Virus record (IMG/VR): IMGVR_UViG_3300045922_000167
Coordinates: 1-64,000 of that record
Origin: a virus
Length of the DNA stretch: 64,000 nucleotides
Direction: 5' to 3' (one strand)
Shown: positions 3,001-62,509 of the stretch, piece by piece
Layout of the letters: each line of letters begins with the position of its first letter
How positions within the stretch are numbered: the stretch's first letter is position 1
Translations under genes and position numbers: made by a program
The notes under the pieces: generated by a model
The model's database searches: none
What the model was told of the DNA's origin: nothing
Seen by the model: only the letters and a program-made list of their open reading frames with translations

Positions 3001-6000
3001 TTAACGTAAAACATACAAAATGAGCTAGTGTATCTTCTGGTTTTAGATAACCTAAAACGTTTTTAAAAGCTACGTAGTCGTTATTAGCAATATTTAGTAA
3101 AGATGATACTATATGTTGAGCAGCTTCGTCAATATTTGTTATTGTTATTGATTGGTCTCGTAACAGAAAATGTGACAAAATAAAAGAATGTTTAACAGGT
3201 TCGTATAGTACATTTTTAAATTTATGATTAAACTGAATTTGCTCTTGTTCTAAAAATAATTTAACAATAGCAATTGCTTTATTTATTTCAGCATTATAAT
3301 TTTTTTCTAAATCTTCAACAGTAAAAAATTTAGCATTTTCTGCTAATAGTACTCTAGAACTATCTCCTATAGTAGGCATTCTTTGATAGTACTTTTTAGT
3401 TTTATTTTTTACTAACGATTGTCTAAATAAACTATAGTCAATACCAAATAACTCATCAGAAGTTAATTTCTTTTGTGTAGATCTATCATAAAATGTATAT
3501 TCTATTCCTAAAATATCTATTGATGTTTCTAAAGAAAAGGCAGAACTTGATATTTTTATACCATTTTCTTTAAACATATTTTGTAATTGATTTGCTCTAC
3601 GCTTCCAATGTTTATCATTTGGTGTTACAAATCCAGTACCTTGTACGTTTTTTCCTTCCGCATTTAACGTATGAGAGTTATGAAGTCTTGAACTATAATC
3701 TATTAATTGACTTGCTAAATCTAACGTAGCGTTTCTGTAATCTTTGTTATTAGTTGTAGATTTGGTGCTTTCAGTTCCTATGTGTTCTGGAATAATAGTA
3801 GTAAAGAAAGTATTTAAAGCATTTAAGTATTCATCTGCTGTTAATTTACTTACGTTTACTCTCAGTGAAGCATTGAATAAAGAAAAAGCAAACCTTGCAG
3901 CTTCTGTTTTAGCTGTTTCATTTGAAGAAGAAACAAAATTTTCGTTACCCGAAGCTATTAGTTTTTCATCTTTTATTTCTTTACCATTTACTACGTTTGT
4001 TTCATTTTTAAATAATCGCCAACCCCCATTAACAAAAAGTAATTTATACTCTTGTTGTTCCTTGTTAACAGTAATAATAAACTTTATTGATGCGTAGTCT
4101 TCTGTGCTAGTATATTTAAATTTATCTTTATTACCAATAAACTCTAATATATTATTTTCTAATAAATTTCTTGTATTTTCTAGACTATCGTTTACTGTAT
4201 CAAATCTTAGAACAAATTCACCATCTTCATCAATTTTTATTGTAGCATATTGATAATCACGTACAGATTCAGCATAATAAAATAAAGAATTAAATAAGTT
4301 TTGTGCTTGATTTAATTTAATTTTAATATTTTCTTGTTCTAGTAAGTTAGAGGCTATAATATTTTGTTCTTGTACTGTTAACAAGAAACCTGGAGAGTAA
4401 GAACCAGAATTATTTCCATATAATGCTACATATAAAGAAGATAATATAGATAATCTATGATTGTCTAAGTTAATTTTTTCTTCTTCATCTACAATTATTT
4501 CGTTTCCGTATTCATCATATATGTAGTTACCTGTTTTTAGTATAAAGTTTTCTAAATAAGTTTTAAAAGTCATTGGTGTAAGCGGTACACCAGGATTTAA
4601 TTTTTTAAATTCATTAACTTCTATATAAGCAGCTTTAAGTGCTTGCTCTGGGTATAAAAAAGAAGCACTACGATTTCTTACGTTTTGAGTTAAATCTACT
4701 AAAGTTTTAAATAATTCTTTTTGTTGTTCAATAGTTCTTTGTTCAATTGGTATTTGTTGTAATTCTACAACTTTGTTTAATTTATTAATAAAAACACCTA
4801 AACTTTTGCTACTTGCAAATTTAGGAACTACACTTAAAAGTAACTTAATTCCTTCAAAACCTGATAATTCTTGAGTATCTACGCTTGCATTTAAACCACC
4901 TAAATTTTTTAGTAGTTTTTTAGTCTCAGCATCAGTTTGCTCTTCTATACTATCTTCTTCTTGTTTAATTTCTACGTCAGCTTCTTCAGAACCATCATAT
5001 AAGTCATCATCATCTATAGGAACATTAGTATTTTTTTCTTTAGCAATTATTTCCAACTCTTCTTTCTTTAATTTGTCTTTTACATCTTCATCTAAAAATA
5101 TATTAGCTTTACTGTGAGTTATTAAAGACAATAATGTAGCTCCTATTTTGCGTATTTTTTTATCTTCATTTACCATCCAGTACGTATAATATATGTCTGT
5201 TATTAGCTGGTTATTAAACGTACCTCTAGTTGGATCAGGATTTAAACCTACCTCTGCTAACCAATTATCATAGTCATTTATTAAATCAAAATATTCATCA
5301 AACTCTGATCTTATATATCCATTTTCATCAAAAATTATTTCGTATAATTCTTGTAATGGATTAATTGAGCTGTATCCACTTTCTATATATTCCCTTAAAG
5401 ACAAATAAAATTTAGATGGATCATCTGTAAAAGTATTAAATATTTCATTTAATACATTTCTTACTTCATTAGCTTTTTTAAATCTTTCTTCTATACCAAA
5501 ACTTAAATTTGTAGGAGGAAGATTATTGTTTATAGCTAAAGCTGAAAAATTTAATATAGTATCTAAAACTAATTGACTTCTATACTGGTATATAAAATCA
5601 TAATAATGTTTATTATGAGTAAATGGAGCTAAAAGTTCATTTTTATTGCTATTTACTAAACTTTTTTTAGCTTCTATTCTACCAGATTTAGAATAATAAA
5701 TGTGATCGTTTGATAAATTAGGAAGTTTACCTTTATAATAACCTCTTTGTGCTCTGTTAAATAAAAATTTAGGATCGTAAGTTCTTCCAATAAGTATATA
5801 TACTAACTCTTTTAAATAAGAAAATAACTTATTTAATATAGTATCTTTGTAAGGACGTAACTCTTGAAACGTATCTGCCATCCATTCTTCTGCTTCTATA
5901 TCAGAAGACTTTGTATTTTTTAAATACTTTTTCTTTACATAATCAAGATATTTACGTTTTTCGCTATCTGTTACAAAACCATCAAATATTAAGTGAAAAG

Positions 6001-9000
6001 CTTCATGGTACACAGCTTTTCTACTAACTTTTCCTTTATATCTATTTAATCCTATAGTCGCCTTAACGTCTCCACTGAGTATAGATGCAGCCTCGTAGTA
6101 CCCATTTAAAGGTATACCTTTATGCTTTAAGTTATCCTCTATGTTTGTCTGACCATACTTTTCAAACGTTTTACCAAATAGCTCAGTTAGCACACCCTTA
6201 GCTTCTAATTCTGACATATTGTAGTCAGTGTAGTCATTGTCTTCAATACTACGTTTAGAAAAACTAAAATTATTTATATCTACCTTACTTTGTGATGATC
6301 CTTGTGAATTTTGTGAGTTTTGTTGTGGCGTTGACGGTGCTTGTGTAGTTTGTGTTGATGTTGTCGGTGTTTGCGTGGATTGCGGTACAAATCTTCTTAA
6401 TGTTTGTTGCGGTTGCTGTAATGGTATACGAGCTTGTATTTCTACCCCAGTAAACTTAATTATATTACTATATACTACATCATCTATTGAGTTTGCTACG
6501 TCATTTAAGTCAAAAATTTGACCTACTCCAGGTACTCCATTTATAGAGTAATTTTTAAATAAGTCTTTGTGATTTTTACCTTTTGGTAGTACTATGTACT
6601 TGTAATATGCAGTATATAATGGTGAACGTCCATTTTTTTGTTCATACTTTTGTCTGTAAGCGGCATCAAATTTTCTAATTTGTTCTTTAATTATATTTAA
6701 ATTATCTGTAATAGTTTTTGGGTCTGGTCCATGTTGAAAGAAAATTTTACGAGATAACGTAGTTCTTATTAACAACGGAGTTAATGCCATAGTTAAATCT
6801 CGGTTAGCATTTACAAATGAATGTATTTCATTTTCTAATCGTAGAAATTCATCATCTTTTTTAAGATCCTCTTCTGTTAAGTTTTCACGTTTAATTTTGT
6901 CTTGTAACTGTTTTACAGTTTCTTCCCAAGAATCTATTAATTTTTCAATTTCCTCTACGCTTTTAAAGTTTCTTCTGTCTAACGGTAATGGGTATACTAC
7001 ATCATTAGCATCTTTAAATAAAAGATAGGCTCTACCTTTTTCTAAATTAGGTAATTTAGATATATTTTTTGAGTTTGGACTACCAGGAATATATTCTATA
7101 CTAGGATTAATTACATCTGGATAAGTTTCATCATAAACTACAGTATTAGATACATTTACTACTATTTTCCCAATAGAAGTAAGTCCTTCTTTTCCCATAG
7201 CTTCAATTAATTGCGCTATGGTACCACCATTTGTATTAGCAGCAAAAGTAGCACTTCCTATACCAGCTGTTAAATCACTAGCTTGTAATGAAGATAAAAT
7301 ACTTTCAATACTGCCTTCTTCCTCAGGTTTAAAGTTTTGAATAAAGTCATTTGTTTTTTTAATGTATATATATAATGGTGCTTCTTCTGATGTAATATTA
7401 AAAAGTGCAGGAGGGTTTATTTTACTAAATGGTAATATTTCTGCTATAGGTTTTTGATTGTAAGTTATTATTAATTTATTTCTTACTTTATCTAATTGCT
7501 CAACAGAAACATTTAATTTATTTTTTTCCTCATCATTATAAATAGCTTTAAGTAGTATATTCTTATTTAATAAATTAGTTCCAGTTTCGTCTATTAATAC
7601 ATTTATTCTAAGAGGTAAAAAATTAGAAAAATATCTTTTATATATAGCTGTTAATCTACTAGCTATCTCTGCTTCTATTTTAGCCTCTTCGTTTATTTGA
7701 ATTCCGTCAGTTTCATAAACTTTAAGATTTGAATAAATTTTCTTTTTTTCTTCCTCATTAGCTTCTTCTAATATGTTTCTAACTCTTTTTTTAGCTCCTA
7801 TTATTTTATTTAAATTATTAGAAATCTGGTGTAAAACTTCTATCTTTACTGGTAAATTAATTCCTTGGTTATCATTATTTTTTTTACCACCAACATGAAT
7901 AATAGAGTCTTTACCATCAGGTTTAATTTCCGTTGTAATTATATAACAAGGTATAGAGTCTATATCCACATTAGGATCGTCTTTTTTGTGATCCAAAAGA
8001 GCCGAATTAAGTAATTTTACATATTTATTTCTGTAATAAGATGCTTTGTTAGCTTTCGGGTCTTTTGCATCATATAAAGCATTATATGATCTTGCGTAAC
8101 TACTTGTTGGTACTTCTGAAAATTTAGAGAAGTCATGCGTATAGTAAAAATTAAAATAAGTCCATAAACCACCTTTACCTATTACTCTCATAGGTATATT
8201 ATAAAGTATACCTTTATTTATAGAGTTATCAATTTCTCCAACATTTCCAGTTTCATAATTAAGTACATCTGTAATATCAATTTCCACATTAGTTATATCA
8301 CCACCTCCAGTCAACTCAATAATTTTTGATCTTATATTTTTAAGAGTATTTTCTATTAAAGTACTATTTATTGGTTGTAATATACTTGCACTTCCATCTA
8401 TTTTAACAGTTAGATTAGTATTATAATAATCAGTAATTTCTTTAATTTGATTTTCTATTTTACGAGTAAACTCTTCTTTATTAGTAAGTATATAGTTTTT
8501 TATTAAATTGTTAAGTAAATTTCTAAATTGTATAGGTGGATTTTGTAAAGCAGTATTATCCTCAAATTGCTCATCTGCGTCTTTTAAGTTTAAACCTCTT
8601 ACAATATCATAAAGAGTGTCATACTCAGTAGGGTCTATTTCACCAGAAAGAATTTTGTTATGTTCTGGTAGTTTACCATCTACAAAGTTTATCGGTGTGG
8701 TAGGTTCGTTATCTACGTCTACGTCACTTTGTTCTGTTATAGCGTCAGCTAAGTCTTCAGCTTCTGAATCTATTTGCTGTTCGTCTTCTACTTCTACTTC
8801 TTCTACGTCTTCTACGTCTTCTACTTCTTTTCCTTCTACTTCTGTATCAGGCGGTGTGAGCGGTGCAGTGGATGTACCTGTAACGTTTGTACCATCCGTA
8901 ATTGGTGCGGCGTTTTCACCATTAACTATTGGAGTTTTTTTACTTTTTTTTCCTAAACTGTTTATTGATTTTGCTATAACTTCTGAGGTTAAGGTTACTG

Positions 9001-12000: not shown

Positions 12001-15000
12001 TGTTTAACTTCTCAGCATTTGGTATTTTCGGTCTAACAATTACATCCCCATTATTTGATAATGTTAAATCAAGTAGATTAAATGGAGAATTAGCAATAGA
12101 AACATCTAAAATAGATGTATTCTTTGCTTGAGTTTTTTCAAAATATTTAGAAACTTCTGGATCAAACCTGCTATTAAATATTTTAGCCTGATTGTGTAAA
12201 AAGTTAATTCTAGCTGCCTGTAAAGCTTTTTGTTTTTTATTTAAAAGAGATACATTATTTTTAGTTTCTTCTTCTGATAATACAAGGTTATTAGCTTCAT
12301 TACGTTCTTTAAAATATATTAAATTCGCTTTAGCTAGCTCTACAAAACCACCTGACTGCATTACCATTAAACGAGTACTTAAGTTATCATACTCTTTATA
12401 GGCATTTTTTATATCTTCTTTAATAAGTTCTTTTTCAGCTGGTGGTATATCAACATCTTTTAATTTAGCTTCTTGATCTACAATATATCTTTGTAAATAA
12501 TGTTGATGTGCTAAAGTATCAGTTACTTTTTTAGTATATTTATTATGGAAATTTTTTAAGAAAACTTTATCATTTTCATCTAGATCTAATCCATAATAAG
12601 ATGAATTATCTACATTAAACCAACTTAACGGTTTAAGTAAAGATTTTTTTGTACTTCCAAATAATTTATTTATTTCTATTTCAGTTTCTACTCTATCAAT
12701 TAAAAATTCTTTTAAGAATTCTTCAGCATTTAAACTTTCTGGTTTAATTCCTGTTTTACGTTCAAAAGTTTCGTAAAACATTTTTAATAAGTTATAATCT
12801 CCTTTACTTACTGCATCTATATCTTCTTCTGTAGCTAATCCTTTATTTTTTAGTACTTGTAATTCAAATAATAGTTGTGATTTTGTTTTATCTATTGTAG
12901 AAACACCTACGTGACTTGACTTTAATTTTGATGGTGATAATAGTTGTAAAGTATATTCCTGTGTATCAGGCGAAAAAGTACCTAAAGTATGTTTAGCTAC
13001 ATCGGATAAATCCATTGATCTAATAGCATCAATTATTGTGTTTTTATCCGTAAACTCTAACATACTAAGTACGTTATCAGATACACTTGCTAATTTTTCT
13101 ATTTTAGCATTTGTTTTAAACTGACGTATTCCTTGAAGGAAAGCAGTAGGAGCACCTGAACCAAAGCCTAATAGCGCACCTTTTAAAGAGTTATTAAATG
13201 CTCTTACGTAGTTAAAACTACCATCTTCATCTGCTGATACCATACCTCCACTGAGCATTCGTTCAGCCACTAGTATTTTGTCTGGGTGGTTCTTATACTT
13301 TTCATACAAATGAAATGAAGCTATTTCTTCATGTAAAGTTTCCTTAAATTCATCAAAAAACTCAGCAGAAAAAGGCGTTGCTGATGTTAATACTCTTTTC
13401 GCTATTGTAGGAATTACTATGTCTTTTTTAAATTCTTTCAAATAAGCTGAAACAGCTTGAGGTCCATACAAGCTATTTAATGCTATCTTTTGTATAGCTT
13501 GTTCATGTAATTTAGTTGCGTTAACAAAAAATGGTTTTAAGTTAGCTTCAGGTAAAAACGCACTAGTTAACATGTACAAAGAACCAAGTTCTTGTGCTGC
13601 TATGGCTGCATCTTCTGGGTCTATACCTATTCTAATCCAATCTTGGTAAATAGATTCTACGGCTATTTTAGTAAACGTATTATTGGCAAAATAATTTGCC
13701 ATAAATGCGTCTAAAATTTTAATATTACTTGCTGCTGGGTTAGCAATTATTTTACTTGCTCCAGCTACGAGCTTTTCGCCAGACCAAAATAAAGGTTTTA
13801 ACGGCGTACTTCTTGCTGCTTTGTAAGCTTCACCAACACCAGAAACTAAACTTTCTCCAGCTTTAACAGCTCCAGGCAAATACTTAGTAGTAGCCTTTGA
13901 GATTGGTCTATATATAGCAGAAAATTTTGCGTTTATTACGTCATCTGTAAAAGTTAAACCTTTACCAACAACTTTACCTGCAAGTCCTAAAGCACTTCCA
14001 GTAGTAGCTGTTTTTGCTAAAATACGAGAACCAATAGCACCGCCTAATTTAGCACCTCCTTGTACACCTTTAGATACTGCGCCACCAACAAATAAAGTAG
14101 GTATTGCTGGAACAACGCTACCTATCGTAAAAGGAATAGCAGTTTCGTAAAAATCTGGAGTAATTAAAGACATAAAAGCCTCTGGATACGTACTAGGTTT
14201 ATCTATACTAAAATTGCTAAATAACTCATCTACGTTTTTTGGTCTATCTGCAAATGGATGAGCTTCTTTATAACCACGTAATTTAGATAAATTAGCTGCG
14301 TAAGACTTAAATAACTCTGCACGATTTAGTAATCCTAAATCATTACCTTCTATACCTAAAGCAGAAAAAGCAGCTGAACTTGGATTTTTTACAGTACCAG
14401 CATTAAGTATAACTTCATCAAAAAAGCCATTTAAAGCATCTGTAATAACATTGACATTAGGCATAATATATTTAGCCCCAATGTTTACCCAAAGTTTTTC
14501 ATACCATTCGTTTGGCGTAAACTCATAGTTTTCTTGTTTTCTTTTATTTTCTACTAAAGAAAGAACTTGAAAATATCTAGCGTCTTTTTTTAAAATGTCT
14601 CTTAAAGCTGCTTGCTCAGGTGTATCGTTTTCCTCGTAAAAACTTAACGGAGTATATTTTACTTTTTGAGTTTTTGCTATATCTTTTAAGACATCTTGAA
14701 AAAGAGAAAAATGAGGAAACCTACTAGCTTCATATCTAGCATTTCTTATGTTTTCCCAATTATCTTTAACGAGTTTAACCGATTCTGTACCTACTCTGGT
14801 TAAAAATCCAGTTACACCTCTTTCTAATATTTCATCTGCTGATCCATACCCACCAGATGTATTTAACGCACGAGACAGTAAATAAGGATTTCCTTTTTCC
14901 TCGTCTGTTAACTCTCTATAAGTTGGTATAGGTATATTATTTTTATCTACTTTCCATTTATCTTGTGGCTCTAAAATTATTACTTTGCCTTTATAATCTC

Positions 15001-17368: not shown

Positions 17369-18688
17369 TTAATTAAATTTTATTTTAGGTGCGTACCAAA
17401 GACTTGATTTTAATGGTTTACCTATCAAACGTTCTCCTAAACTTGAAGCGGAATTTAATGAATTAGTACTTTGTGGTAATGAATTTATTTGACTATTTGC
17501 TGTACCAAATGATTCAGGTTCTTCATTAGAACTGTATGAACTTAAATTATTAGAGTTAACAGAACCAAGAATAGGATTAGATATGCTAGGTCTTAAACTT
17601 GGGTTATTTTGACCTAATTGTTGTTTATATATATTAAAAAGGTTGTTATTCATACCGTGAGTATTCAAATCCTTAAACAAAGACTGACCAGTACCTATCA
17701 TTCCTTGCAACGTCTGCATTTTAGTATTATGTCTCATTATCTCATCTTGGTATTTAGCCATAGCATTTTGATTACGAGACTGGTTTTCTTGAGCTGCATA
17801 TTGGTTATCCAGCTGACCTAATTGCATTTCTAAGTTAGACCTTTGCATACCTAAGTCAGCTTGCTGTCGTGCAAGATCATTTTGGGCAGAAAGTGCCGTA
17901 CCTTGCGCTTGGTTAGTTAACGCAGCTGCAATAGCTGCAAAAGGCGTACTACGTTGTGCTTGGTTTGCAGCGTTCGTTAGTTGATTATTTATCCTTTGTG
18001 CTTGACCACTGAGAGCGTTCTGACTCGCCTGAGCAAAGTTATTACGCGCAGCTCCCATAAACGATCTATTTGCCTGAAAGTCTTGTAGCTTAGGCATTTT
18101 AATTTTGTTTTGCCTAGTTATACTATACGCACCTAAGCCTATGTTAGCAGCTGCTAAACCACCTGCTATGTATGGATTAGCAGTAGCTAAACCAGCTAAT
18201 GCTTTTTTATATGAGTCTAATTCCTTGCGTTGTTTCATAGCTTCTTGTTTAAATACTGAGTCGTCTGCTGAAGATAATAATTCTATTAAATATTTATGTT
18301 CTCTAATGAATTTTTTTCTTGGTAGTTCAATCTTACCTCCAGTATCTTTTTTCTTGTCTTTACCATCAGGTAGTTGATTATGTACATACTCTTTTTCTTC
18401 TGAAGTTAATCTAAGATAATCATCTTTTTTTATTCTTCCTACTCTACTTTGTGTAGGTATTATCATTCCACCAGCTTTAAATTCTCCTTTAATACCATTT
18501 TGTGAATGATATCTTCCTTGTAAATCCCATATATGATATTTACCATCATGCCCCATATACTTTGCTTTACCACCTGATATAATTTTAGGAGGTTCAGGAT
18601 CAGTATGTACGTACAGTTCATTATTTTCAGCTTCTATTTTAACATACGGTGTAGATTTTATATATTTACCGTTTTTAATATCTTTCAT
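17369..18688 (-). CDS. Putative ejection/cargo protein with hydrophobic segment
   Basis: GRYHSQNGI motif, Ala/Gly hydrophobic stretch ALAGLATANPYIAGGLAAANIGLGAY, and Q/A/N-rich coiled coil typical of ejected proteins. Confidence 0.55.
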   Translation of the reverse strand: MKDIKNGKYIKSTPYVKIEAENNELYVHTDPEPPKIISGGKAKYMGHDGKYHIWDLQGRYHSQNGIKGEFKAGGMIIPTQSRVGRIKKDDYLRLTSEEKEYVHNQLPDGKDKKKDTGGKIELPRKKFIREHKYLIELLSSADDSVFKQEAMKQRKELDSYKKALAGLATANPYIAGGLAAANIGLGAYSITRQNKIKMPKLQDFQANRSFMGAARNNFAQASQNALSGQAQRINNQLTNAANQAQRSTPFAAIAAALTNQAQGTALSAQNDLARQQADLGMQRSNLEMQLGQLDNQYAAQENQSRNQNAMAKYQDEIMRHNTKMQTLQGMIGTGQSLFKDLNTHGMNNNLFNIYKQQLGQNNPSLRPSISNPILGSVNSNNLSSYSSNEEPESFGTANSQINSLPQSTNSLNSASSLGERLIGKPLKSSLWYAPKIKFN

Positions 18689-18691
18689 AAT

Positions 18692-19081: not shown

Positions 19082-19268
19082 TCATTTTTATTCTCTCATT
19101 ACTCACTGAGTGTTCCCTTATAATTAAAGACTTAAACGCAGCTATTGTATCTACGTCTAAATTAGCTGTGAGTTTACTACATTGAGCTGTAAAAACACCT
19201 CCTTGCCAAAAAGCACAATTAGAACACTTAGGTTCAGGTAATTGGGGATTATTTTGTGTATTTGCCAT
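18990..19268 (-). CDS. Small Cys-motif protein (CxxCxxW...C...FYC)
   Basis: 92-aa ORF coupled (TAATG) to the tail stabilization gene. Confidence 0.5.
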   Translation of the reverse strand: MANTQNNPQLPEPKCSNCAFWQGGVFTAQCSKLTANLDVDTIAAFKSLIIREHSVSNERIKMTIHTFPDFYCTFHQYSQDTVMVSPPEEPSC

Positions 19269-22879: not shown

Positions 22880-22917
22880 TAACGTGTTACTCAGTGAGTG
22901 GTGTGAAGACTTAAAAA

Positions 22918-39955: not shown

Positions 39956-40116
39956 TTATGTTTGATAAATCTCTATCATGCAGAGATGATAAATGTATGA
40001 CGTGTCGGAACAACGAAAGAGTTCTATGTGTTATCTTAACCCCTCAACGTAGTGCACGGCGTTGGGGGATTTTTAATCCTCTCTGTGCAACCACTGAGTG
40101 TTAATATCTTATTTCT

Positions 40117-44998: not shown

Positions 44999-47049
44999 AT
45001 TATTTGATTACAAACACAAAAACGTTATTTGATGAAAATAACGGTTGGAAAATACTAAACGTAATTTCTCAAACAGAAACTACGATTAGTAGATTAGTAA
45101 ATGTGTTACAATCTAGTAATATATATTATTTAGATACTGAAACTACTGGATTAGATCCACACCTTAATAGATTACTTTTAGTAACTATTAGATCAGGTTA
45201 CGATACCATAGTAATTGATTTTTCTAATTTAGGAGATAAACAAGAAGCTATTAAAGTCTTGTTAAATTCATATCTAACTAAAGAAGAAAAAACAATTGTA
45301 TGGTTTAATGGTAAGTTTGATTACAAGTTTATGTTAAAGAACTTTGGTATTCATTTAACTAATCATTATGATTTGTTTTTAGCTCATAAAGCTATAACAA
45401 ATGGGTTAGATGAACCAAATAGTCTTAAGGATGTAGTTAACAAATACTTAGGATTTTATATGGCTAAAGAAGAACGTACTGAATTCCTAAAGTATGATAA
45501 ATCAACTTATTTACCTAAGTTATCTCATATACAGTACGCTGCAAAAGATGTAGACGTTCTTGAAGATTTGTACGAAATATTACGTAAGGAAGTAAGAGAC
45601 AAAGAATTAACTCAAGTAGTTGATTTAGAAAATTCTGTTATGCCAGCATATGCTTTTATGGAATATACTGGAGTTCCTTTGGATATTACGTATTGGCAAG
45701 AAAATATTATATCTAAATACCAAGCGTTAGCTGATATATGTTTAGATAATTTAACTAAGATAGCTCTCAGTGACCCTGCACTCTCCAAATATAAAATAAA
45801 AAATCCTATCGTAAATTTATTTGGAGAACCAGATTACGCTATTTCTAGAAACGGTAAACCTTTAATAAGTAAGGAAGCCATATATCATAGCATTAACTGG
45901 AATTCTAACCAGCAAGTGTTAGAAATAATGAAAAATGACTATGGTATTGAATGTAGTTACAAAATACAAGGTCAAGTAAAACAAGGCGTTAATGCCGATG
46001 TTTTACTTGCACATTGTAGCGAAGAATTTAAACACTCAGTGAGTGATGGAGACTTAAAAAAAGGTACAGAGACTGCGAGTAGTATATTTGAATGGTTGTA
46101 CCTTTTGAAGAAAACTGAGAAGCTCTTGAGAACGTATGGACAAAATCTAATAGACATAATTAACCCAGTTACTAAACGTCTCCATTGTGAATTTAACCAA
46201 ATGGGTACAGACACAGGAAGGGTATCTTCAAACAACCCTAACCTTCAAAACTTACCACGTTTGCAAGAATTTCGTTCAGGTATTAGAGTACATGGAGATG
46301 ATAAATGGTTGATAACATTAGATTACGATGGTGCTGAATTACGAATCATAGCTGATGGAGCTGAAGAGCCTACTATGATTAGAGCTTTTAATGACGGTGA
46401 GGATGTTCACGCTTTCTTAGCTACTAAAGCCTATGGCGTTACAGTAACTAAGAAAGAAAACAAACATCTAAGAAATAATATGAAGACAGTGAACTTTGGA
46501 TTAGCTTATGGGGCTGGTCCGTCTAAGTTTGCTGATATATTTGGTTCAGTAGAAAAAGCTAAAGACTTCTTGGATAACGTTTACTACAAGAACTTTCCTA
46601 AACTTAAAACGTTTTTTAATTCCTTAGCTGAATTCGGTCAAACTAACGGCTACATAACTACTTTTCCTCCAATAAGTAGAAAACGATTTTTTCCTAATCA
46701 CGAAGAAATCGTAGAAAAAGCTAAAACGGACAAAGAATATCAAGCTAAGTTAGCTGCGATAGGTAGAGAATCTAAAAATACTCCTATTCAAGGTACTTCA
46801 GCTGATATAATCAAATTAGCTACTGCTACGTTATTTAACGAAATACTACGTAATAATATGTTAAATAACGTTAAAATAATTAACCAAGTACATGATGAAT
46901 TAACTATTGAATTAAATGGATATTCATTAGAAGAAGCTAGATCTTTTGCTACTTGGATTAAAGGGGTTATGGTATATGCTGGCTCTTTACAAATAAAACA
47001 TGTCGTTATGGAAGTATCATACGACATAGACAAAATATGGGTTAAATAA
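44995..47049 (+). CDS. polA: DNA polymerase family A with 3'-5' exonuclease
   Basis: ExoI DTETTGL, ExoII FNGKFD, ExoIII YAAKD; TGRVSSNNPNLQN, DYDGAELR, KTVNFGLAYG, NTPIQGT, VHDE. Confidence 0.95.
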   Translation: MNYLITNTKTLFDENNGWKILNVISQTETTISRLVNVLQSSNIYYLDTETTGLDPHLNRLLLVTIRSGYDTIVIDFSNLGDKQEAIKVLLNSYLTKEEKTIVWFNGKFDYKFMLKNFGIHLTNHYDLFLAHKAITNGLDEPNSLKDVVNKYLGFYMAKEERTEFLKYDKSTYLPKLSHIQYAAKDVDVLEDLYEILRKEVRDKELTQVVDLENSVMPAYAFMEYTGVPLDITYWQENIISKYQALADICLDNLTKIALSDPALSKYKIKNPIVNLFGEPDYAISRNGKPLISKEAIYHSINWNSNQQVLEIMKNDYGIECSYKIQGQVKQGVNADVLLAHCSEEFKHSVSDGDLKKGTETASSIFEWLYLLKKTEKLLRTYGQNLIDIINPVTKRLHCEFNQMGTDTGRVSSNNPNLQNLPRLQEFRSGIRVHGDDKWLITLDYDGAELRIIADGAEEPTMIRAFNDGEDVHAFLATKAYGVTVTKKENKHLRNNMKTVNFGLAYGAGPSKFADIFGSVEKAKDFLDNVYYKNFPKLKTFFNSLAEFGQTNGYITTFPPISRKRFFPNHEEIVEKAKTDKEYQAKLAAIGRESKNTPIQGTSADIIKLATATLFNEILRNNMLNNVKIINQVHDELTIELNGYSLEEARSFATWIKGVMVYAGSLQIKHVVMEVSYDIDKIWVK

Positions 47050-48253: not shown

Positions 48254-49474
48254 ATGACAAGAGATGAACTGCAAATGGAAGCACTTCAGTCCTGGATAAA
48301 TTCAGGATGTGTAGGGAACATAATATTACCTACTGGTACAGGTAAAAGTAAATTAGCTCTAATGGCTGCTGGTTCGGTCATAGAGCATTTTTATTCTCTC
48401 AATATGCTCACTGAGAGTTCGCAAGTATTAATTGTAACAAGTCGTATTAACCTTAAAATAAACGAATTTCCAAATACTATTAAGAAGTTTGGTTACGAAG
48501 CTTGGGCTAAGTACATTAAAATACATTGTCTACAATCAGCTTACAAGTTTTCAGGTAACCATTACTTGTGTATAATAGTAGATGAAGTACATAACATGTA
48601 TGGAACTAATTATACTGCTCTTATTAATAATAATAGCTATTATTATTACCTCGGATTAACAGCTACGTTATCCAAAGAAAAAGAAATTCATTCTTTGTCA
48701 CACAACATTCCTATTGTTTACAAAAAGACATTTAATGATGTTGTACGACATAAAATAGTAAATCCAGTTACAGTAATTAACGTAGCAATTACGTTAAACG
48801 AAACTGAATTAAACGCTTACCAAGAAATTAACTTGGATATAGAAAATCTTGTTGATGCTTTAGTACCTAACGGTACTGCATTTGATGCGTTAAAATTAGC
48901 TACGAAATATTCTAAAGACACAACTAATGAGTTTATGCAAAAGTTAAGTCTTAGATATTTTAAACTAATTAAAGAAAGACTAAGAATACTACAATGGGCT
49001 GAAAGTAGATACTCGTGTTTACTTTCTATATTATCTAAACATCAAGATGAAAAAATAATAGTATTTACTGGTTCTATTGGTCAGTTAGAAACATATTACG
49101 TTAACGTTACAAACTTAAAAACATTTAAGACTTTTAGGTATCATAGTCAAATGACTAAAAAAGAAAGATTACAAGAATTAGATAAGTTTGCTAAAGAACC
49201 TAAATCTGCTATTATTTTCTCAGCTGAAGCGTTAAATGAGGGTGTCGATATACCTGATTGTAGTGTAGCTATTGTATTATTTGGTACTACAAGTCAACTT
49301 GTAGATACACAAAGAAAAGGAAGAATTGCACGTTTCGCTGATAACAAAAATGCTATCATGTATAACGTGTATGTAAGTTCTAGCATAGAACACAAATACG
49401 TACTAAATCGCACAAAAGAAAACAAAGAATATTCATCATGGATAACAATGGATCAATTACAAAAATCAACGTAA
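48254..49474 (+). CDS. SF2 (DExH) helicase
   Basis: PTGTGKS, DEVH, LTAT, EGVDIPD, QRKGRIAR. Confidence 0.92.
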   Translation: MTRDELQMEALQSWINSGCVGNIILPTGTGKSKLALMAAGSVIEHFYSLNMLTESSQVLIVTSRINLKINEFPNTIKKFGYEAWAKYIKIHCLQSAYKFSGNHYLCIIVDEVHNMYGTNYTALINNNSYYYYLGLTATLSKEKEIHSLSHNIPIVYKKTFNDVVRHKIVNPVTVINVAITLNETELNAYQEINLDIENLVDALVPNGTAFDALKLATKYSKDTTNEFMQKLSLRYFKLIKERLRILQWAESRYSCLLSILSKHQDEKIIVFTGSIGQLETYYVNVTNLKTFKTFRYHSQMTKKERLQELDKFAKEPKSAIIFSAEALNEGVDIPDCSVAIVLFGTTSQLVDTQRKGRIARFADNKNAIMYNVYVSSSIEHKYVLNRTKENKEYSSWITMDQLQKST

Positions 49475-49959: not shown

Positions 49960-50899
49960 ATCTTTACACGAAATATTAACTGATACGTACAATTCGTTAA
50001 CTTACTACCGTTCAGGTAATCCTTATTGCTTTGTAACGAAATTTAACTCACTTAATGATGCTTTAGGTGGAGGTATTGAATTTGGTACTACAATGGTGAT
50101 AGGAGCAAGACCTGGTATGGGCAAGTCAACGATTGTAATGCAGTTAATCTTAGACATTCAAGAAGTAAATCACTTTCCTTTAGAGATTCATTTCTTGAAT
50201 TGGGAGATGACTACTAATCAATTGGGTATTAGAGTATTAGCCAATCAAACTAATATGAATATATCCAAGATAAGAAGTTTAGATACGATGAGTCTTTATG
50301 AAAACGTTAGTACTATTCAAAATAAAATACCAAATAAAATTTACGTAAATGATAATGCAATGACTTTACAAGATTTAGATTCGTATATTAGTACTCAGTG
50401 TGACCATAGAGAAGAAATAAAAAAACTATTCGTTATAGACCATACACGTTTATTACTTCCATCCGATGAAAGAACAGAAGAAGAAAGGCTATTCAATCTA
50501 TGCAGGTATATTAATCATTCGAATAAGTTACATGGAGCATCCTATATTTTGCTTTCTCAATTGAGTAGAGAAAGTGAAAGGGAAAATTCATCACTTAAGA
50601 CTGAAGGATACCGAGAGCCTATAATGGCTGATTTGTTCGGAGCATCTGCATTAGAACAATTCGCTCATAGTGTTATTTTGCTTTACGCTCCTAAGCTAAA
50701 TGAGCGTGAAACATATCCTATGCACTACAATAACGTTACGTATCAAATACCGACTGATAACTTAATAATCGGTAAGCTCGTAAAAAATCGTAATGGTCCA
50801 ATAGGTAAATTATATTTTGTAACAGAAAGCTCTACTTTTGTAATAAAAGAGTTTGATAAATCAACACTACAAAACCCATTTGAGTTATATGGAAAATAA
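49943..50899 (+). CDS. dnaB: DnaB-like replicative helicase (C-terminal ATPase domain)
   Basis: GARPGMGKS, WEM, VIDH, LSQLSRE, KNRNGP. Confidence 0.92.
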   Translation: MTMPCKSLHEILTDTYNSLTYYRSGNPYCFVTKFNSLNDALGGGIEFGTTMVIGARPGMGKSTIVMQLILDIQEVNHFPLEIHFLNWEMTTNQLGIRVLANQTNMNISKIRSLDTMSLYENVSTIQNKIPNKIYVNDNAMTLQDLDSYISTQCDHREEIKKLFVIDHTRLLLPSDERTEEERLFNLCRYINHSNKLHGASYILLSQLSRESERENSSLKTEGYREPIMADLFGASALEQFAHSVILLYAPKLNERETYPMHYNNVTYQIPTDNLIIGKLVKNRNGPIGKLYFVTESSTFVIKEFDKSTLQNPFELYGK

Positions 50900-54807: not shown

Positions 54808-55899
54808 ATGACCGATGAATCTCTAACAGAACAAAAGTTATTTGACGCTGTTACTGAGCTAGAGATATTTAGTTTCGTAATGGGTGTTGATGTTGTTGTA
54901 GGAAAGGCTTATTCATCTCCTTTACGTATAGACATACACCCATCATTTTATATATTTAATTCTGTACGTGGTAGTAATAAACTTATGTGGAAAGACCACA
55001 GTACAGGTGAGTCTGGTAATGTATTTAAGCTCATTGCGTTACTGCATGGGCTTAAATACCCAGATTCGCTTAGATGGGTTAATAGGGAGATGGGTATAGG
55101 TTTACCTGATGACTACATAGATATTTCCGAAAAAGGGTACGCACGTAACGTTCCTAAACGTATTTTTTCTCCTTCTTCATTACCCACTGAGTACTCACAG
55201 AAAGTTAATTCCGTTAAGGAATTTAAATTCGTATATAGATTCTGGGAAATGTACGACTTTGATTATTGGAGTCAATATTGCATCACACCAGAAACTCTTA
55301 CGTTTTATCACGTCAATGCAGTAGATCAAGTTTGGATGAATGACAAGTTCCTATTTAGAAGTACTAAATACGAACCTGTTTATAATTATGTATTCGTAAA
55401 CGAAGTAGACAATACTTTAAGGTATAAAATCTATAAACCTTTAAGTCATAGATCTAGAAAATGGTTAAGTAATTGTAATGTAGATGTTTTACCTGGATAC
55501 ATACAATTATTATATTTGCAACAGAATGGATACGTATTCGATTCTAATTCATTTCTAGTTATTACAAAGTCTTTGAAAGATACTATGGTATTACATGAAT
55601 TAGGTATACTATCTATATCAGTTAATAGTGAAACTTCTGGTATTCCTAAATATCATTTAGAAAATATTATGAAGCTTGGTATTAATAAATTTCTAATATT
55701 GTACGATAATGACGAAGCTGGAAGATCAAACGCATTAAAATTATCTCAGCAATATTCTATACCAGCCATAGAAATACCTGAAGAATATCAAGTAAAAGAC
55801 ATTTCAGATTTAATTAAATATTATGGAAAGAACACGACAAAAGAATTTACGCAATACTTCAAAGAATACGCAGGTTACCCTAGATTACAATTACGATAA
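54808..55899 (+). CDS. DNA primase (Toprim, crAss-type)
   Basis: SPLRIDIHPSF, WKDHSTGESG, ITKSLKD, LYDNDEAG, KDISD. Confidence 0.88.
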   Translation: MTDESLTEQKLFDAVTELEIFSFVMGVDVVVGKAYSSPLRIDIHPSFYIFNSVRGSNKLMWKDHSTGESGNVFKLIALLHGLKYPDSLRWVNREMGIGLPDDYIDISEKGYARNVPKRIFSPSSLPTEYSQKVNSVKEFKFVYRFWEMYDFDYWSQYCITPETLTFYHVNAVDQVWMNDKFLFRSTKYEPVYNYVFVNEVDNTLRYKIYKPLSHRSRKWLSNCNVDVLPGYIQLLYLQQNGYVFDSNSFLVITKSLKDTMVLHELGILSISVNSETSGIPKYHLENIMKLGINKFLILYDNDEAGRSNALKLSQQYSIPAIEIPEEYQVKDISDLIKYYGKNTTKEFTQYFKEYAGYPRLQLR

Positions 55900-57581: not shown

Positions 57582-57996
57582 GCTTTATGATGAGTTCTTT
57601 GCACAGTTCAAACCTTATTTAAATGGCGATGTTTGTTTACTTTTTCCTTACAGATTTATATTAGTTACGTACGAAAAAGAAAATATTACGCATAAAGCAT
57701 CTGTATTATTAGGTTATTTTGATGCCAAAGCTGATAATATTTGCAGACTTCAAGTAATATCTCAAGTAGAGTATACAGATGATAGGGAATTAGATATACA
57801 AGCAGTTGCTTACATCTTATTAACCCTTCTACGTAAAACTGTTTTCGTAGAAGGGTTTAAATTTTTCGCTAAAATGAACTTGCAATTCGGTGGAGACGAA
57901 GATGACTACCTATATAATCTTTGTTTCTCTATACCAGCCACTGAGTTAGAGCGTTATACGCTATTTTACAGTTACACATTTCAACCTGAAGGTTAA
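57565..57996 (+). CDS. Hypothetical protein
   Basis: 143-aa ORF in operon. Confidence 0.6.
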   Translation: MENIFKLYDEFFAQFKPYLNGDVCLLFPYRFILVTYEKENITHKASVLLGYFDAKADNICRLQVISQVEYTDDRELDIQAVAYILLTLLRKTVFVEGFKFFAKMNLQFGGDEDDYLYNLCFSIPATELERYTLFYSYTFQPEG

Positions 57997-59657: not shown

Positions 59658-61152
59658 TTACTCAGAATATCACGAAGAAGACGTATTTGATTACGTTGAA
59701 GAAGAAAACGTAGAGTCAGCTAATAAAGCTGAATACGCAAAAGATCCTTACTACATATTAGAATGTAGAAGAGAAGATATTATCTATACAGATGATCAAC
59801 AAAATACATTAATAGACATAGCTAAACATATTAAAAAGTTTAGCGAAGAATATGAAGAAATTGATGATTTACCAAATAAGTATTTACTTGTAGAAGGTTT
59901 CGCTGGTACAGGTAAAACTACAATAATTGAGAACATCATCAATTATATTAATTATTTGATGGATTTTAGTCCAGTGGTACTAACACCTACCAACAAGGCT
60001 GGAGTCGTTTTACAAGAGAAATTAAGAGGAATTGAGGGTACTTATGAACTAAGTACCCTTCATTCCAAAATCTATGGGGGTCCTACGGTAGATAATAAAT
60101 GGATACCTAAACAAGAGATAATTAAGAACGAGGTTATCTTAATTGACGAATGTTCGATGGTAGATACTCAAGTACTTAACGACCTTTTAAGTTTGGCTAC
60201 AAGTAATTGCTTGATTATTATGTTCGGTGATAGCTTCCAGCTAGAACCAGTAGGCGAGAATCCTAATTTATTTACACGTCAAGACTTTTGGGCTGCTCAT
60301 TACAAACTAACTCAAGTACGTAGGCAATCGGTAAGTGAGCTACTTAACGTATGTACAGATGTTAGATTAAATAATTCAATGACTGTAAAGTCTGAATTTT
60401 TAGATAATACAATAAGCTATATAGAAAGAATTGATACTTTTACTGAAGCCTACATACAAGCATTGCAGCTAAACGCTGATGCTATGTATTTACTATTCAA
60501 TAATCAAAGTAGGGTAATGTTAAATAACTACGTTAGAGAAAGATTAGGATATACCTCATATGTAGAAGATGGAGAAAAGCTCATATCCATAGCAAACAGT
60601 TCTTCCTACGGAGACTTTATAGCGAACGGTGAGATAGTAAGAACTTCATATGTAGAAGTAGAAAATATGGAAGTGTTGTCTAAAGCCTTAGCTGAGATTA
60701 AAGTATTTACTCTCAGTGGTCTAGAAGAAAACAAAAAAACTACTGCGGTATTTAGGTTCTTAGCAATTAAAGGTACTGTACATTTATGTCTAATATTTCC
60801 TGATTTAGAGTTATCTTCGTTGCCTCATCAAGTACTTAATAGATGGATTAAAGATAATCCAGACGATGAATTCACTAAGTATTTAATTAGTATTCGTGCA
60901 GTAGCTAACAGTAAGTATGGATTATTTTTAATAAAGGAAGTAGTTATATTAACGTATACTTACGCTATTACTGTACATAAAGCACAAGGTAGTCAATTTG
61001 AATTTGTATGGATTAATACGAATGAAGTACCTAAATCTCCTTATCGTTGGTTTTATACTGCTCTTACAAGAGCTACTAAGAAAGTTTACTTACATGGAAA
61101 TAATATTAAAGTAATTAGAGATAACTTATTTACAAATGAATTACAACGTTGA
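59650..61152 (+). CDS. RecD/Dda-like SF1B helicase
   Basis: GFAGTGKT, TPTNKA, TLHS, IDECSM, GDSFQL, YAITVHKAQGSQF, YTALTRA; likely start MIDY at 59650. Confidence 0.92.
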   Translation: MIDYSEYHEEDVFDYVEEENVESANKAEYAKDPYYILECRREDIIYTDDQQNTLIDIAKHIKKFSEEYEEIDDLPNKYLLVEGFAGTGKTTIIENIINYINYLMDFSPVVLTPTNKAGVVLQEKLRGIEGTYELSTLHSKIYGGPTVDNKWIPKQEIIKNEVILIDECSMVDTQVLNDLLSLATSNCLIIMFGDSFQLEPVGENPNLFTRQDFWAAHYKLTQVRRQSVSELLNVCTDVRLNNSMTVKSEFLDNTISYIERIDTFTEAYIQALQLNADAMYLLFNNQSRVMLNNYVRERLGYTSYVEDGEKLISIANSSSYGDFIANGEIVRTSYVEVENMEVLSKALAEIKVFTLSGLEENKKTTAVFRFLAIKGTVHLCLIFPDLELSSLPHQVLNRWIKDNPDDEFTKYLISIRAVANSKYGLFLIKEVVILTYTYAITVHKAQGSQFEFVWINTNEVPKSPYRWFYTALTRATKKVYLHGNNIKVIRDNLFTNELQR

Positions 61153-61990
61153 ATTACTTAAAGCTACGTTACCTGCTTCGCAAGAAGCAGGTAACGCTTA
61201 TAATATTCTAATTTCAATGAAGCTAACGTATCCGTTATGTATTCATTCAGAGTTTATGACGTATCGTAGGTTTGCACGTAATAGCGCTAGCTTACGTGCT
61301 ATACCTACAAAAAAATTAATAGATATGGTACGTCAATATCCTTTTATACCTAAGTTTACTAAGAATCAAAAAGGAATGGAATCTAACGCATTACTCAGTG
61401 AGCAATTGGAAGCAGAAAATATTTGGCTAAAAGGACGTGACGAAGCTATTAAAACAGCTGAGAAATTAGATGCGTTAGGTGTAGCTAAACAAGATGTAAA
61501 TAGAGTATTAGCTCCTTACTTGTGGAATACTATAATAGCTACTGCTCCGTTCTTTGATTGGCTTCATTTACTTAACCAACGTCTAAAACCTGATGCAGAT
61601 CCTAAGTTCCAAGAATTGGCGTTACATATTAAAGATGCCTTAAGGTCATTTACGTTAGAACGAAGTAACTTTCATTATCCTTTTGGTAGGTTTGGTAATA
61701 AAGTACACGATACTATCGTACGTAACGTAGCTGCTTGCGCTAGGATTAGTTATCTAAGTAGAGGTGAGTTTACGTTAGAACAAGACCAAGAACTTTATGA
61801 TCGTTTGTTATCTAATGGTCATTGGTCTCCGTTTGATCACATAGCGGAATTTAACGAATCAGAATCTAACGATAGTATTTGGAAATACTGGATACCATAT
61901 CGTAATAGACTACCTCAATGGGAATCATATAAAACAATTGGTATATACATAGAATCAATCGATCACAATATAAACATATCCATGCTATGA
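61136..61990 (+). CDS. thyX: Flavin-dependent thymidylate synthase (ThyX-like)
   Basis: HSEFMTYRRFARNSASLRAIP, KQDVNRVLAP, CARISY, GHWSPFDH. Confidence 0.8.
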   Translation: MNYNVELLKATLPASQEAGNAYNILISMKLTYPLCIHSEFMTYRRFARNSASLRAIPTKKLIDMVRQYPFIPKFTKNQKGMESNALLSEQLEAENIWLKGRDEAIKTAEKLDALGVAKQDVNRVLAPYLWNTIIATAPFFDWLHLLNQRLKPDADPKFQELALHIKDALRSFTLERSNFHYPFGRFGNKVHDTIVRNVAACARISYLSRGEFTLEQDQELYDRLLSNGHWSPFDHIAEFNESESNDSIWKYWIPYRNRLPQWESYKTIGIYIESIDHNINISML

Positions 61991-62434: not shown

Positions 62435-62470
62435 AAAGGCTATTAGGGTAACACCTAATAGCCTTTTTTT
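62435..62470. terminator. Terminator at the convergence of the two modules
   Basis: AAAGGCTATTAGG/CCTAATAGCCTTT stem plus T tract. Confidence 0.8.
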
Positions 62471-62509
62471 AGTTAACACACTCTCACTGAGTGTTAATAT
62501 TAACATAGG

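Follow-up and report, generated by a model that had tools for sequence, protein, structure and literature searches.

In a hot-spring crAss-like phage, the heptamer CTCAGTG occurs 34 times across a 90,888-base genome, with non-random flanks in about 28 copies, the other six or so resembling chance heptamers. Our preferred but tentative reading is that these roughly 28 copies are lineage-private recognition sites in duplex DNA for one sequence-specific, most likely phage-encoded protein that acts genome-wide. The binding of a protein, its phage origin and what this binding achieves are what we infer. The copies located one by one below lie in a window of 64,000 nt of this genome, whose assembly carries a 127-bp terminal overlap.

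The window contains 24 copies against 3.23 +/- 1.60 in dinucleotide-preserving shuffles (shuffle maximum 7). This agrees with an earlier sequence-only reading of the window, which had claimed an enrichment of about 8-fold over some three expected copies; each of the 24 coordinates and strands that it listed is exact, and our re-scan found no further copy. The Markov correction that it had proposed was run on the full genome and gave expectations of 4.5, 4.8, 3.1, 2.1, 3.5 and 11.0 copies for orders 0 to 5 (hence 2-5 for orders 0-4), making CTCAGTG by far the most over-represented 7-mer (order-3 z of 21.8, versus 8.5 for the runner-up). Within coding sequences, 25 copies are observed versus 2.3 +/- 1.6 after shuffling synonymous codons while keeping the proteins (maximum 10 in 500 shuffles), and 1.9 after shuffling codon order. 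Since synonymous-codon shuffling removes most in-gene copies, the signal lies at the DNA level, as had been supposed, rather than being a codon effect. The supposed lack of strand bias is likewise borne out, with 18 copies on the plus and 16 on the minus strand of the genome.

Over about 36 bp, the full site is built of (G)TA, the core CTCAGTG, a purine, a spacer that is 73% purine with AGAG near +15, and a run of five A. The base at -1 is A or T in 32/34 copies, with TA directly before the core in 15, and +7 is a purine in 31/34; purines make up 73% of positions +7 to +27 compared with 51% outside. The conserved flanks described before (A/T ahead of the core, a purine-rich tail) are therefore real. 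The A5 run begins at +22 to +24 in 25/34 copies, and +25 is A in 32 of the 34. The flanks carry information from -7 to +28 and are random beyond; when flanks were scored in bits and judged against percentiles of random flanks, 17 of the 25 copies in coding sequences exceeded the 99th percentile. The core is all-or-none, copies with one mismatch being at chance level. The pseudo-palindromic extension CTCA-N8-TRAG, proposed earlier as the mark of a dimeric protein, fared less well: in its exact register it is present in six of the 34 copies versus 0.25 expected, and so is above expectation, but it is missing in most copies. We therefore regard the site as asymmetric and not pseudo-palindromic; with TRAG at +12 in only those six, a dimeric protein is not supported. 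Folding of single copies as RNA or single-stranded DNA gave neither a consistent fold nor a general downstream hairpin.

The sites appear to be placed with little regard for what surrounds them. Three quarters (25/34) lie inside genes, and the scarce spacers contain about 5-fold more sites than their share, which is what would be expected if any position suffices and spacers are the cheapest. The in-gene copies use all three sense frames and, in antisense, both frames that are free of stops, as the earlier claim of different frames and orientations would have it, and they are not concentrated near the 3' ends of genes. Relative to gene direction, the well-flanked copies divide into 13 sense and 13 antisense, and the intergenic ones into 4 and 4. 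In the window, six copies are clearly intergenic and two others fall in small ORFs of doubtful status, in agreement with the seven intergenic copies counted previously. The term lattice, in contrast, was too strong, because copies are not spaced with significant regularity (CV 0.76, P = 0.07).

Several of the intergenic copies sit between a terminator hairpin and the following start codon. At 40071..40100 (minus strand, score 14.4 bits), the A-run of a full site forms the T-run of the plus-strand terminator hairpin 40041-40068, and CACTGAG stands 18 nt ahead of the ATG at 40117. The best-scoring site (38524..38553, plus, 21.0), in the early region, is intergenic and is followed by a terminator-like hairpin at 38568-38585. 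Upstream of terL lies one of two convergent pairs of copies in the genome, only 93 nt apart from core to core: its left member (36533..36562, plus, 14.4) places CACTGAG 16 nt ahead of the terL ATG, and its right member is at 36607..36636 (minus, 18.6). Another full site (22888..22917, plus, 7.8) fills the 38-nt spacer between two minus-strand genes, with CACTGAG 10 nt ahead of the ATG of a 1,203-aa gene. The one at 27109..27138 (minus, 8.7) lies 5 nt past a stop codon, co-directional with the genes and about 55 nt upstream of a 613-aa gene. At a convergent gene junction, the A-run of 62464..62493 (minus, 13.8) adjoins a strong bidirectional terminator hairpin (z = -6.0). The full site at 19083..19112 (minus, core 19104-19110, 14.5), in a doubtful 92-aa ORF, comes just beyond the stop of the plus-strand HU-like ORF 18692-19081.

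Within genes, full sites lie in sense in a glucosaminidase/FlgJ-like gene (40257..40286, plus, 14.0, encoding STQCEIREIKN), a DnaB-like helicase gene (50392..50421, plus, 9.9) and a Dda/RecD-like helicase gene (60710..60739, plus, 9.9), and antisense in a 388-aa gene (31313..31342, plus, 12.6), the helicase gene 48254-49474 (48388..48417, minus, 11.9) and a DnaG-like primase gene (55164..55193, minus, 16.5). The copy in the terminase large-subunit gene (35040..35069, minus, 9.7) codes for YSVE where a 4-residue indel separates it from the closest homologues. Lower-scoring sites occur in sense in a ThyX-like thymidylate-synthase gene (61392..61421, plus, 8.0) and in a 439-aa gene (17986..18015, minus, core 18007-18013, 3.1), and antisense in the signal-peptide region of a 181/193-aa gene (44466..44495, minus, 5.6); a weak one is antisense in a 143-aa gene (57918..57947, minus, 0.6). 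A site in PolA (46033..46062, plus, 5.8) lies just N-terminal of the part that can be aligned with Taq and Klenow. An ORF of more than 5,124 aa spans three copies, of which 3859..3888 (plus, core 3861-3867) is antisense and scores 3.0 bits, exceeding the 95th percentile for random flanks. The other two are bare cores in sense with random-like flanks (6052..6081, minus, core 6073-6079, score -1.6; 13228..13257, minus, core 13249-13255, -2.7); together with a bare core in PolA (45764..45793, plus, -4.9), whose flanks are also random-like, they may be chance heptamers.

Because the sites are indifferent to orientation, frame and gene context, their role would be genome-wide and not gene-specific. 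The putative protein would read the invariant 7-bp core base by base and would read, or bend around, the A5 tract centred 22 bp away across the purine-rich spacer. This distance is about two helical turns and would bring both elements to the same face of the DNA; the constant register of the A-tract would fit a rigid complex of protein and DNA. The protein might plausibly occupy, organise or mark the phage chromosome while this is replicated, packaged or ejected. The earlier idea of a genome-wide set of protein-binding sites thus stands in so far as the signal resides in the DNA, depends on neither frame nor orientation and has a flank consensus, but its dimeric part is not supported, and the binders that it named, two HU/IHF-like proteins and a DnaA-IV-like HTH protein, are weak candidates. 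Pfam and PHROGs gave nothing useful for 18692-19081, 23837-24367 or 61987-62424, the HU family (PF00216) matching the first of these below threshold (E 0.02, 11.7 bits), and DnaA_C had no match in any frame. The two HU/IHF-like proteins are lead-level candidates, their ESM-Atlas look-alikes reaching no more than that level (0.88-0.91), and the reader could be one of the many ORFan proteins of the phage. Some observations speak against a protein site of this kind. No phage protein is recognised as the binder, no recognisable DNA-binding family in the phage passing its cut-off; and an all-or-none core is more typical of nickases, methylases, restriction-like proteins, Chi or single-subunit RNA polymerases, whereas ordinary architectural or regulatory binders tolerate degenerate sites.

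Known site sets resemble this one in part. The stoperators of mycobacteriophages L5 and Bxb1 and the C1 operators of P1 are dozens of asymmetric 13-17-bp sites for one phage protein, scattered like ours over a whole phage genome, but in these temperate phages they serve a repressor. Those of L5 follow the direction of transcription and are mostly found in short spacers, unlike the CTCAGTG copies, which are mostly in genes and randomly oriented, in a phage where no integrase (tyrosine recombinase) or ParB domain was detected. DnaA boxes, matS and the sites of Noc and SlmA share with our set the tens of strict sites, genes included, in any frame and orientation. They organise cellular chromosomes, are mostly palindromic (DnaA boxes excepted) and are read genome-wide by a dedicated DNA-binding protein, while neither DnaA_C nor ParB was found here; to our knowledge, no such set has been described in a phage. 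IHF sites, too, are asymmetric, measure about 30-35 bp and pair a specific element at one flank with an A-tract at the opposite one. Their sequence is unrelated and their consensus degenerate, as opposed to an invariant 7-bp core, and distant crAss-like phages have IHF-like proteins too, yet show no enrichment of the motif. In the Crassvirales, IHF counts among the hallmark genes of the structural block (PMC10136315).

The strictness of the core could instead be that of an enzyme substrate, the heptamer being the recognition sequence for programmed single-strand nicks or site-specific base modification and the A-tract an element for positioning or bending. We consider this unlikely. Phage tf is reported to show a similar pattern: its 14 exact TACTRTGMC sites are nicked, and none of the three existing single-substitution variants is (PMC3517423). 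Like the nick sites of T5, phiKMV-like phages and tf, where the phiKMV consensus is itself bipartite (PMC3517423), ours have an extended or bipartite strict consensus, a dozen or more copies in the genome of a lytic phage, genes included, and over-represented exact copies with near-misses at chance. Also, the dCTP deaminase, ThyX-like and MazG-like proteins of the phage make up a nucleotide-metabolism set compatible with non-canonical DNA chemistry. However, all sites of the described nick systems are on one strand (PMC3517423), whereas both are used equally here, and opposite-strand nicks would be risky in a hot-spring phage given two convergent pairs only 93 nt apart. The CTCAGTG site is also longer and has a phased A-tract. 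No nickase-type domain was found, searches for HNH, GIY-YIG, N6/N4, C5 and D12 methylase and TGT/DpdA domains being negative in every frame, and modification alone would leave the enrichment unexplained.

Promoter-like elements for a phage-directed RNA polymerase are distinctly unlikely, although the geometry is that of a sigma-70 promoter. CTCAGTG would be a -35-like or T7-like specificity element, and TAAAAA a -10-like element past a 16-nt spacer (22 bp centre to centre), or the purine-rich stretch would be initially transcribed, yielding mRNAs, antisense RNAs or replication primers from both strands. Phage-specific promoters are strictly conserved, the copies between terminators and start codons are suitably placed, and the regions upstream of the genes yielded no canonical Bacteroidota -33/-7 promoters. 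Described crAss-like middle and late promoters, in contrast, resemble host -35/-10 elements and are nearly all intergenic and sense-oriented, whereas our copies are randomly oriented, mostly in genes away from 3' ends, and face one another in the convergent pairs. No sigma r2 or r4 domain was detected in the phage. The early virion-RNAP promoters of phi14:2, for their part, have no detectable common upstream motif (10.1101/2020.03.07.982082), which leaves room for an element such as this one.

It is very unlikely that the heptamer acts on unwound DNA as a Chi-like or uptake-sequence-like signal that protects phage DNA or stimulates recombination, read by host RecBCD/AddAB or by the phage RecD-like helicase with a PD-(D/E)XK nuclease. 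Chi sites and DNA uptake sequences are host-genome-wide signals with which ours share a short, invariant and over-represented core that tolerates no mismatch and occurs within genes whatever the frame or orientation, as a circularly permuted genome would lead one to expect; Haemophilus uptake sequences also have AT-rich flanks and inverted pairs at terminators. The phage also encodes a Dda/RecD-like helicase, a Cas4/RecE-like exonuclease, a RecT-like annealase and a RusA-like resolvase. Against this, Chi has as features neither an A-tract at a fixed register 16 nt downstream nor flank information over 36 bp, and neither sampled Bacteroidota genomes nor metagenome contigs hold the bipartite site at elevated density. 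CTCAGTG was not enriched in any of 301 Bacteroidota genomes, a sample that may not include the true host; the densest had one copy per 6.3 kb and 0-2 bipartite copies, and in one of the genomes the flanks of the copies were random. A metagenome-wide scan with a 17-base bipartite pattern returned singleton, chance-level matches and no host-like cluster. Nor was the heptamer enriched in 80 distant crAss-like loci (17 observed vs 57 expected), none of which has an equally extreme 7-mer. Compared with these loci and the sampled hosts, the site looks private to this phage lineage.

A mobile or recombination system could also have left the copies behind as remnants, or use them as binding ends. They would then be the solo terminal repeats of a transposon that targets TA, signals of the RSS type (heptamer, spacer, A-rich stretch) or a REP/MITE-like repeat spread by copy-and-paste. 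We take this to be highly improbable. Copies in genes keep the frames open in each of five registers and are no clear insertions; that in TerL falls within a stretch that can be aligned, with an indel of at most four residues. Beyond the site, the members of pairs are not homologous, and outside -7 to +28 the flanks are random. The spacer measures 16 nt, neither 12 nor 23, and no tyrosine recombinase was found. The layout has a formal likeness to the V(D)J recombination signal, CACAGTG-spacer-ACAAAAACC, and to the TA-CAGTG ends of Tc1, and TA precedes 15 of the cores. Some pairs, such as 19104/48409 and 36535/40092, have extended flanks in common, and in variant strains a rearrangement breakpoint falls at 36590, between the paired copies upstream of terL.

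The set of CTCAGTG sites (complement CACTGAG) in this phage is genuine, with overwhelming statistical support and a clean definition. All 24 copies that the sequence-only reading had listed in the window lie where it placed them, none had been overlooked, and its estimate of an approximately 8-fold enrichment holds, with 24 copies against 3.2 ± 1.6 in dinucleotide-preserving shuffles. The whole genome contains 34, where Markov models of orders 0 to 4 expect 4.5, 4.8, 3.1, 2.1 and 3.5, respectively; the order-5 expectation (11.0) is inflated because the 6-mers of that model include those raised by the copies themselves. CTCAGTG ranks first among 7-mers with a z-score of 21.8 (8.5 for the second), and word scans at k = 8-10 returned its extensions on top and no second motif. 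For the 25 copies that lie inside genes, the signal survives a codon-aware null in which synonymous codons were shuffled per gene while keeping the proteins: 500 shuffles gave 2.3 ± 1.6 copies, with a maximum of 10. Moreover, in-gene copies occur in each of the three sense frames and in the two antisense frames that are free of stops. It follows from the codon-aware null and from this use of frames that the signal resides in the DNA itself and is written by codon choice.

Numbering the first C of the core as position 0, the core itself (0 to +6) is present in 34/34 copies, preceded by (G)TA at -3 to -1, with A or T at -1 in 32 of the 34. It is followed by a purine at +7 (31/34) and by a purine-rich spacer from +7 to +27 (73% purine vs 51% outside), in which AGAG starts at +14 or +16 in 14/34 copies, a run of five As starts at +22 to +24 in 25/34, and +25 is an A in 32/34. 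The core is of an all-or-none kind: there are 68 one-mismatch variants where about 75 are expected, and those with good flanks are not above chance. A gap of 16 nt separates core and A-tract, whose centres are 22 bp apart; this distance is about two helical turns and puts both on one face of the helix. When flanks are scored with a leave-one-out matrix and compared with random flanks, 28 of the 34 copies exceed the 95th percentile and, of the 25 coding copies, 17 exceed the 99th. The remaining six (6073, 13249, 45766, and 71646, 80728 and 82847 further along the genome) look random and are about as many as the chance heptamers expected; this makes the true element an asymmetric site of ~36 bp present in about 28 copies. 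The pseudo-palindrome CTCA-N8-TRAG, from which a dimeric binder had been proposed, is found in exact register in six copies of 34 only, which gives a symmetric dimer site no support. An RNA structure is ruled out too, given that single copies fold no better than shuffles, with no significant fold, and that no general hairpin is found downstream of the copies.

The absence of strand bias described earlier is borne out by the whole genome (18 copies on +, 16 on -), and well-flanked copies are evenly split with respect to local genes (13 sense, 13 antisense). Nine copies fall in spacers or doubtful small ORFs, a share about five times that expected from the non-coding fraction. Intergenic copies have no preferred orientation (4 vs 4). 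In four of them (22890, 36535, 40092 and genome position 85357) CACTGAG stands 1-18 nt ahead of a start codon, three or four are co-directional with genes (19104, 27130, 36628, 38526) and one is at a convergent junction (62.4 kb). Three copies share their A-run with a terminator hairpin, as its A- or T-tract; these hairpins lie at 40041-40068, at 62437-62462 and after 38526. 'Lattice' is too strong a term, as the spacing barely departs from random towards evenness (CV 0.76, P = 0.07). There are two convergent pairs, 36535/36628 and 82847/82940 in the rest of the genome, both 93 nt from core to core and with unrelated sequences between the cores; the pair 36535/36628 forms a long hairpin (z = -5.5). 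Also, TAACACGT is found directly before the ATG of a 1,203-aa minus-strand gene (22880-22889) and of the terminase large subunit gene, terL (36519-36534), which are the two late genes with CACTGAG ahead.

The genome is a single contig of 90,888 bases with 31.5% G+C, and the window covers its first 64 kb. The first and last 127 bp of the contig (window 1-127, genome 90762-90888) overlap, which looks as if it came from assembling a circular or terminally redundant genome; the assembly is thus circular, with a true length of ~90,761 bp. A giant virion ORF (>5,124 aa), as is typical for the crAss-like group, spans the contig-end junction, and PHROG profiles recognise genes for a major head protein, a portal, a large terminase, a PolA-type DNA polymerase and helicases. 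This gene set, together with a terminase at most 30% identical to the TerL of known Crassvirales and one Leptolyngbya phage, indicates a deeply divergent crAss-like phage. TerL (34227-36518, minus strand) exceeds its closest homologues by 60-130 aa, and contains at residues about 356-386 a low-complexity S/T/N-rich stretch in which nearly all residues are changed in a 94%-identical strain variant, the remainder being almost identical. The replication module encodes a DnaB-like helicase, a DnaG-like primase and a Dda/RecD-like helicase; a RecT-like annealase, a RusA-like resolvase and a PD-(D/E)XK exonuclease; and a dCTP deaminase, ThyX-like and MazG-like proteins. It opens with an 821-aa protein (41935-44400, plus strand) without Pfam or PHROG family and without DxDxD or Walker A motifs, whose sole homologue in 5.8 billion proteins is a 96%-identical strain variant. 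Public runs containing the phage are hot-spring or microbial-mat metagenomes. For the dCTP deaminase, the nearest cellular homologues come from Sphingobacterium and Saprospiraceae MAGs, which is consistent with a putative host among the Bacteroidota.

As far as can be seen from sequence collections, the site set appears private to one lineage. Across 80 crAss-like loci of IMG/VR (TerL identity 29-37%, 1.05 Mb) there are 17 CTCAGTG against 57 expected from base composition, and no private 7-mer of the same strength. The motif pattern has three matches in IMG/VR, a chance level, and the 17-base bipartite pattern (core plus spaced A-run) gives 105 singleton matches in a metagenome collection, at chance level and without any cluster. 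Nor is the heptamer enriched among 301 Bacteroidota genomes, the densest of which has a copy every 6.3 kb (every 2.7 kb in the phage); the five densest contain 0-2 bipartite copies vs 17/34 in the phage, and in one of these the flanks are random. An apparent strand bias of CTCAGTG in some Bacteroidota genomes is an artefact of listing order: 400 kb of genome G037 contain 6 forward and 13 reverse copies. The same stretch (G037:C1:1-400000) does have a strongly strand-skewed word, AGGGTAG/CTACCCT, whose skew (5 vs 61 copies) recalls a KOPS-type polar word and which is unrelated to the phage motif. In the papers on Crassvirales that we searched, no such signal is described.

The best fit to these data, which we favor tentatively, is that the copies are lineage-private sites recognised by a single sequence-specific protein, which would act on duplex DNA genome-wide; we place it first because promoter, nick, Chi and mobile-end readings all fit less well. 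Next, and doubtful, comes its enzymatic version, in which the sites are nicked or modified. The all-or-none core and extended consensus suit it well: the nick sites of T5, phiKMV and tf, whose purpose is still unexplained after decades, likewise have a strict, extended and enriched consensus with near-misses not enriched. However, described phage nick systems have all their sites on one strand (PMC3517423), whereas here both are used (18 and 16 copies). No nuclease candidate was found for this role, and a six-frame profile search of the whole genome returned no HNH or GIY-YIG nuclease and no N6/N4, C5 or D12 methylase.

That the copies are promoter or primer elements is unlikely. They do share with sigma-70 promoters two elements 16-18 nt apart, the 16-nt spacer being as between -35 and -10, but most copies lie inside genes rather than co-oriented upstream of them, so that neither location nor orientation fits. 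Middle/late promoter motifs described for phi14:2 and other crAss-like phages related to it lie nearly always between genes and in sense orientation (10.1101/2020.03.07.982082). The phage encodes a virion RNAP polyprotein, and no sigma-70 region 2 or 4 (r2, r4_2) was found by six-frame profile search of the whole genome. The canonical Bacteroidota promoter pattern was discarded, with three matches, a chance level, all antisense. Stoperators and dispersed repressor operators, which lie mainly in spacers, oriented with transcription, in temperate phages that have a repressor, are ruled out by copies mostly in genes and in random orientation, and by the lack of an integrase or ParB (both searched in six frames over the whole genome).

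A Chi-like or uptake-type signal would explain the invariance of the core and its presence in both orientations, and yet we consider it quite unlikely. Such signals are over-represented in the host genome and their short core alone carries the activity, while here information extends over 36 bp of flank, with an A-tract in fixed register, and no enrichment is seen in the sampled Bacteroidota genomes or metagenome contigs, among which the host may be missing. More speculative still, and very improbable, is that heptamer and phased A-tract form a phage-private 'self' code, read either by an injected protein or by the phage's own end-processing machinery, which would be the RecD-like helicase and the PD-(D/E)XK nuclease. 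If so, DNA lacking the code would be degraded or remodelled while the phage's own chromosome would be spared or organised, and a crAss-like phage would have evolved a Chi-like system independently of its host.

Mobile-element or recombination ends are the least credible reading: the sites bear a striking formal resemblance to heptamer-spacer-A-rich recombination signals and TA-CAGTG transposon ends, but the spacer has the wrong length, reading frames stay open, and no tyrosine recombinase (six-frame search, whole genome) or transposase matched among the proteins scanned (about 40 vs PHROGs and eight vs Pfam). Indeed, the V(D)J RSS/Transib signal consists of a CACAGTG heptamer, a 12- or 23-bp spacer and the nonamer ACAAAAACC, and is served by a RAG/Transib-type transposase; our heptamer is 6/7 identical, and the likeness is formal only, the 16-nt spacer and the lack of a transposase among the scanned proteins ruling this signal out. 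REP/MITE-like repeats are extragenic, palindromic and inserted relative to homologues; they are excluded by mostly intragenic copies, open frames and the lack of a stable fold, and the copy in terL, which is not a motif-sized insertion relative to homologues, also counts against them. A resemblance of the core to the tRNA D-arm (CTCAGTGG) was likewise dropped: ARAGORN finds zero tRNA, and no TGT/DpdA gene is found in six frames over the whole genome.

If a protein recognises this lineage-private site, its reader should be among the few lineage-specific ORFans. IHF/HU sites have a degenerate WATCAANNNNTTR-like core and a flanking A-tract; the A-tract architecture of our site is similar, but its core is unrelated and invariant. 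Among the binders suggested earlier, the product of 18692-19081 (plus strand) does match the HU profile PF00216, albeit at 11.7 bits, below the cut-off. In the ESM Atlas, this protein and the product of 23837-24367 adjoin viral clusters, some with an HU domain, with scores (0.88-0.91) that amount to a lead only. The ORF 18692-19081 lies inside a minus-strand gene block (18605-19268) and runs over the 3'-terminal ~90 nt of a 92-aa minus-strand ORF that is start-coupled to its upstream gene, so that only one of the two is likely real. The third candidate, a 145-aa protein (61987-62424) thought to be DnaA-IV-like, contains an HTH-looking segment, and the whole genome has zero matches to the DnaA C-terminal domain in six frames. 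Both it and the 821-aa protein are ORFans and consequently have no alignment. Single-sequence AlphaFold models reached a pLDDT of 41 for the 145-aa protein and 53 for the 129-aa HU-like one, too poor for a fold search. IHF is a hallmark of the structural block of Crassvirales (PMC10136315), and distant IHF-encoding members do not have the motif.

To our knowledge, genome-wide strictly conserved site sets are rare in lytic phages. Dispersed sets of this sort are a known kind, and the present variant is not known: new are the use of both strands, the asymmetric 36-bp site, the phased A-tract, the location in essential genes and the crAss-like phage. At about 26 bits of information, with an all-or-none core and synonymous-codon encoding inside essential genes, the signal is unusually clean. 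Little is known of the organisation of transcription, replication and packaging in Crassvirales. Although the phage is uncultured, the question can be tested directly with recombinant proteins and synthetic DNA. Also, the motif provides a sequence tag to follow the lineage in hot-spring mats.

Several variant strains exist, one with a 90,791-nt genome; those co-occurring in the same mat are 1.7-9% diverged and show cassette swaps in the early region. Nearer relatives, with TerL identities of 42-50%, are found on Logan contigs (P0003, 74 kb; P0005, 59 kb). Variant-strain contigs differ from the genome at 681 places in all, and they vary in A-run length at 36558. A rearrangement breakpoint in variant strains falls at 36590, between cores 36535 and 36628; a joint 37472/38535 adjoining core 38526 was set aside as unreliable, one side having only 27 letters. 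Variant proteins retain the motif-encoded residues, in a comparison that is without power because long flanks are equally retained. The early region (37256-41572) is hypervariable, with small genes replaced or deleted whole among same-mat contigs: 40609-40980 is exchanged for 706 other letters and 41178-41403 for 218, while 37506-37807 and 39637-39970 are skipped. This region contains 18 terminator-like hairpins, where 4.4 are expected.
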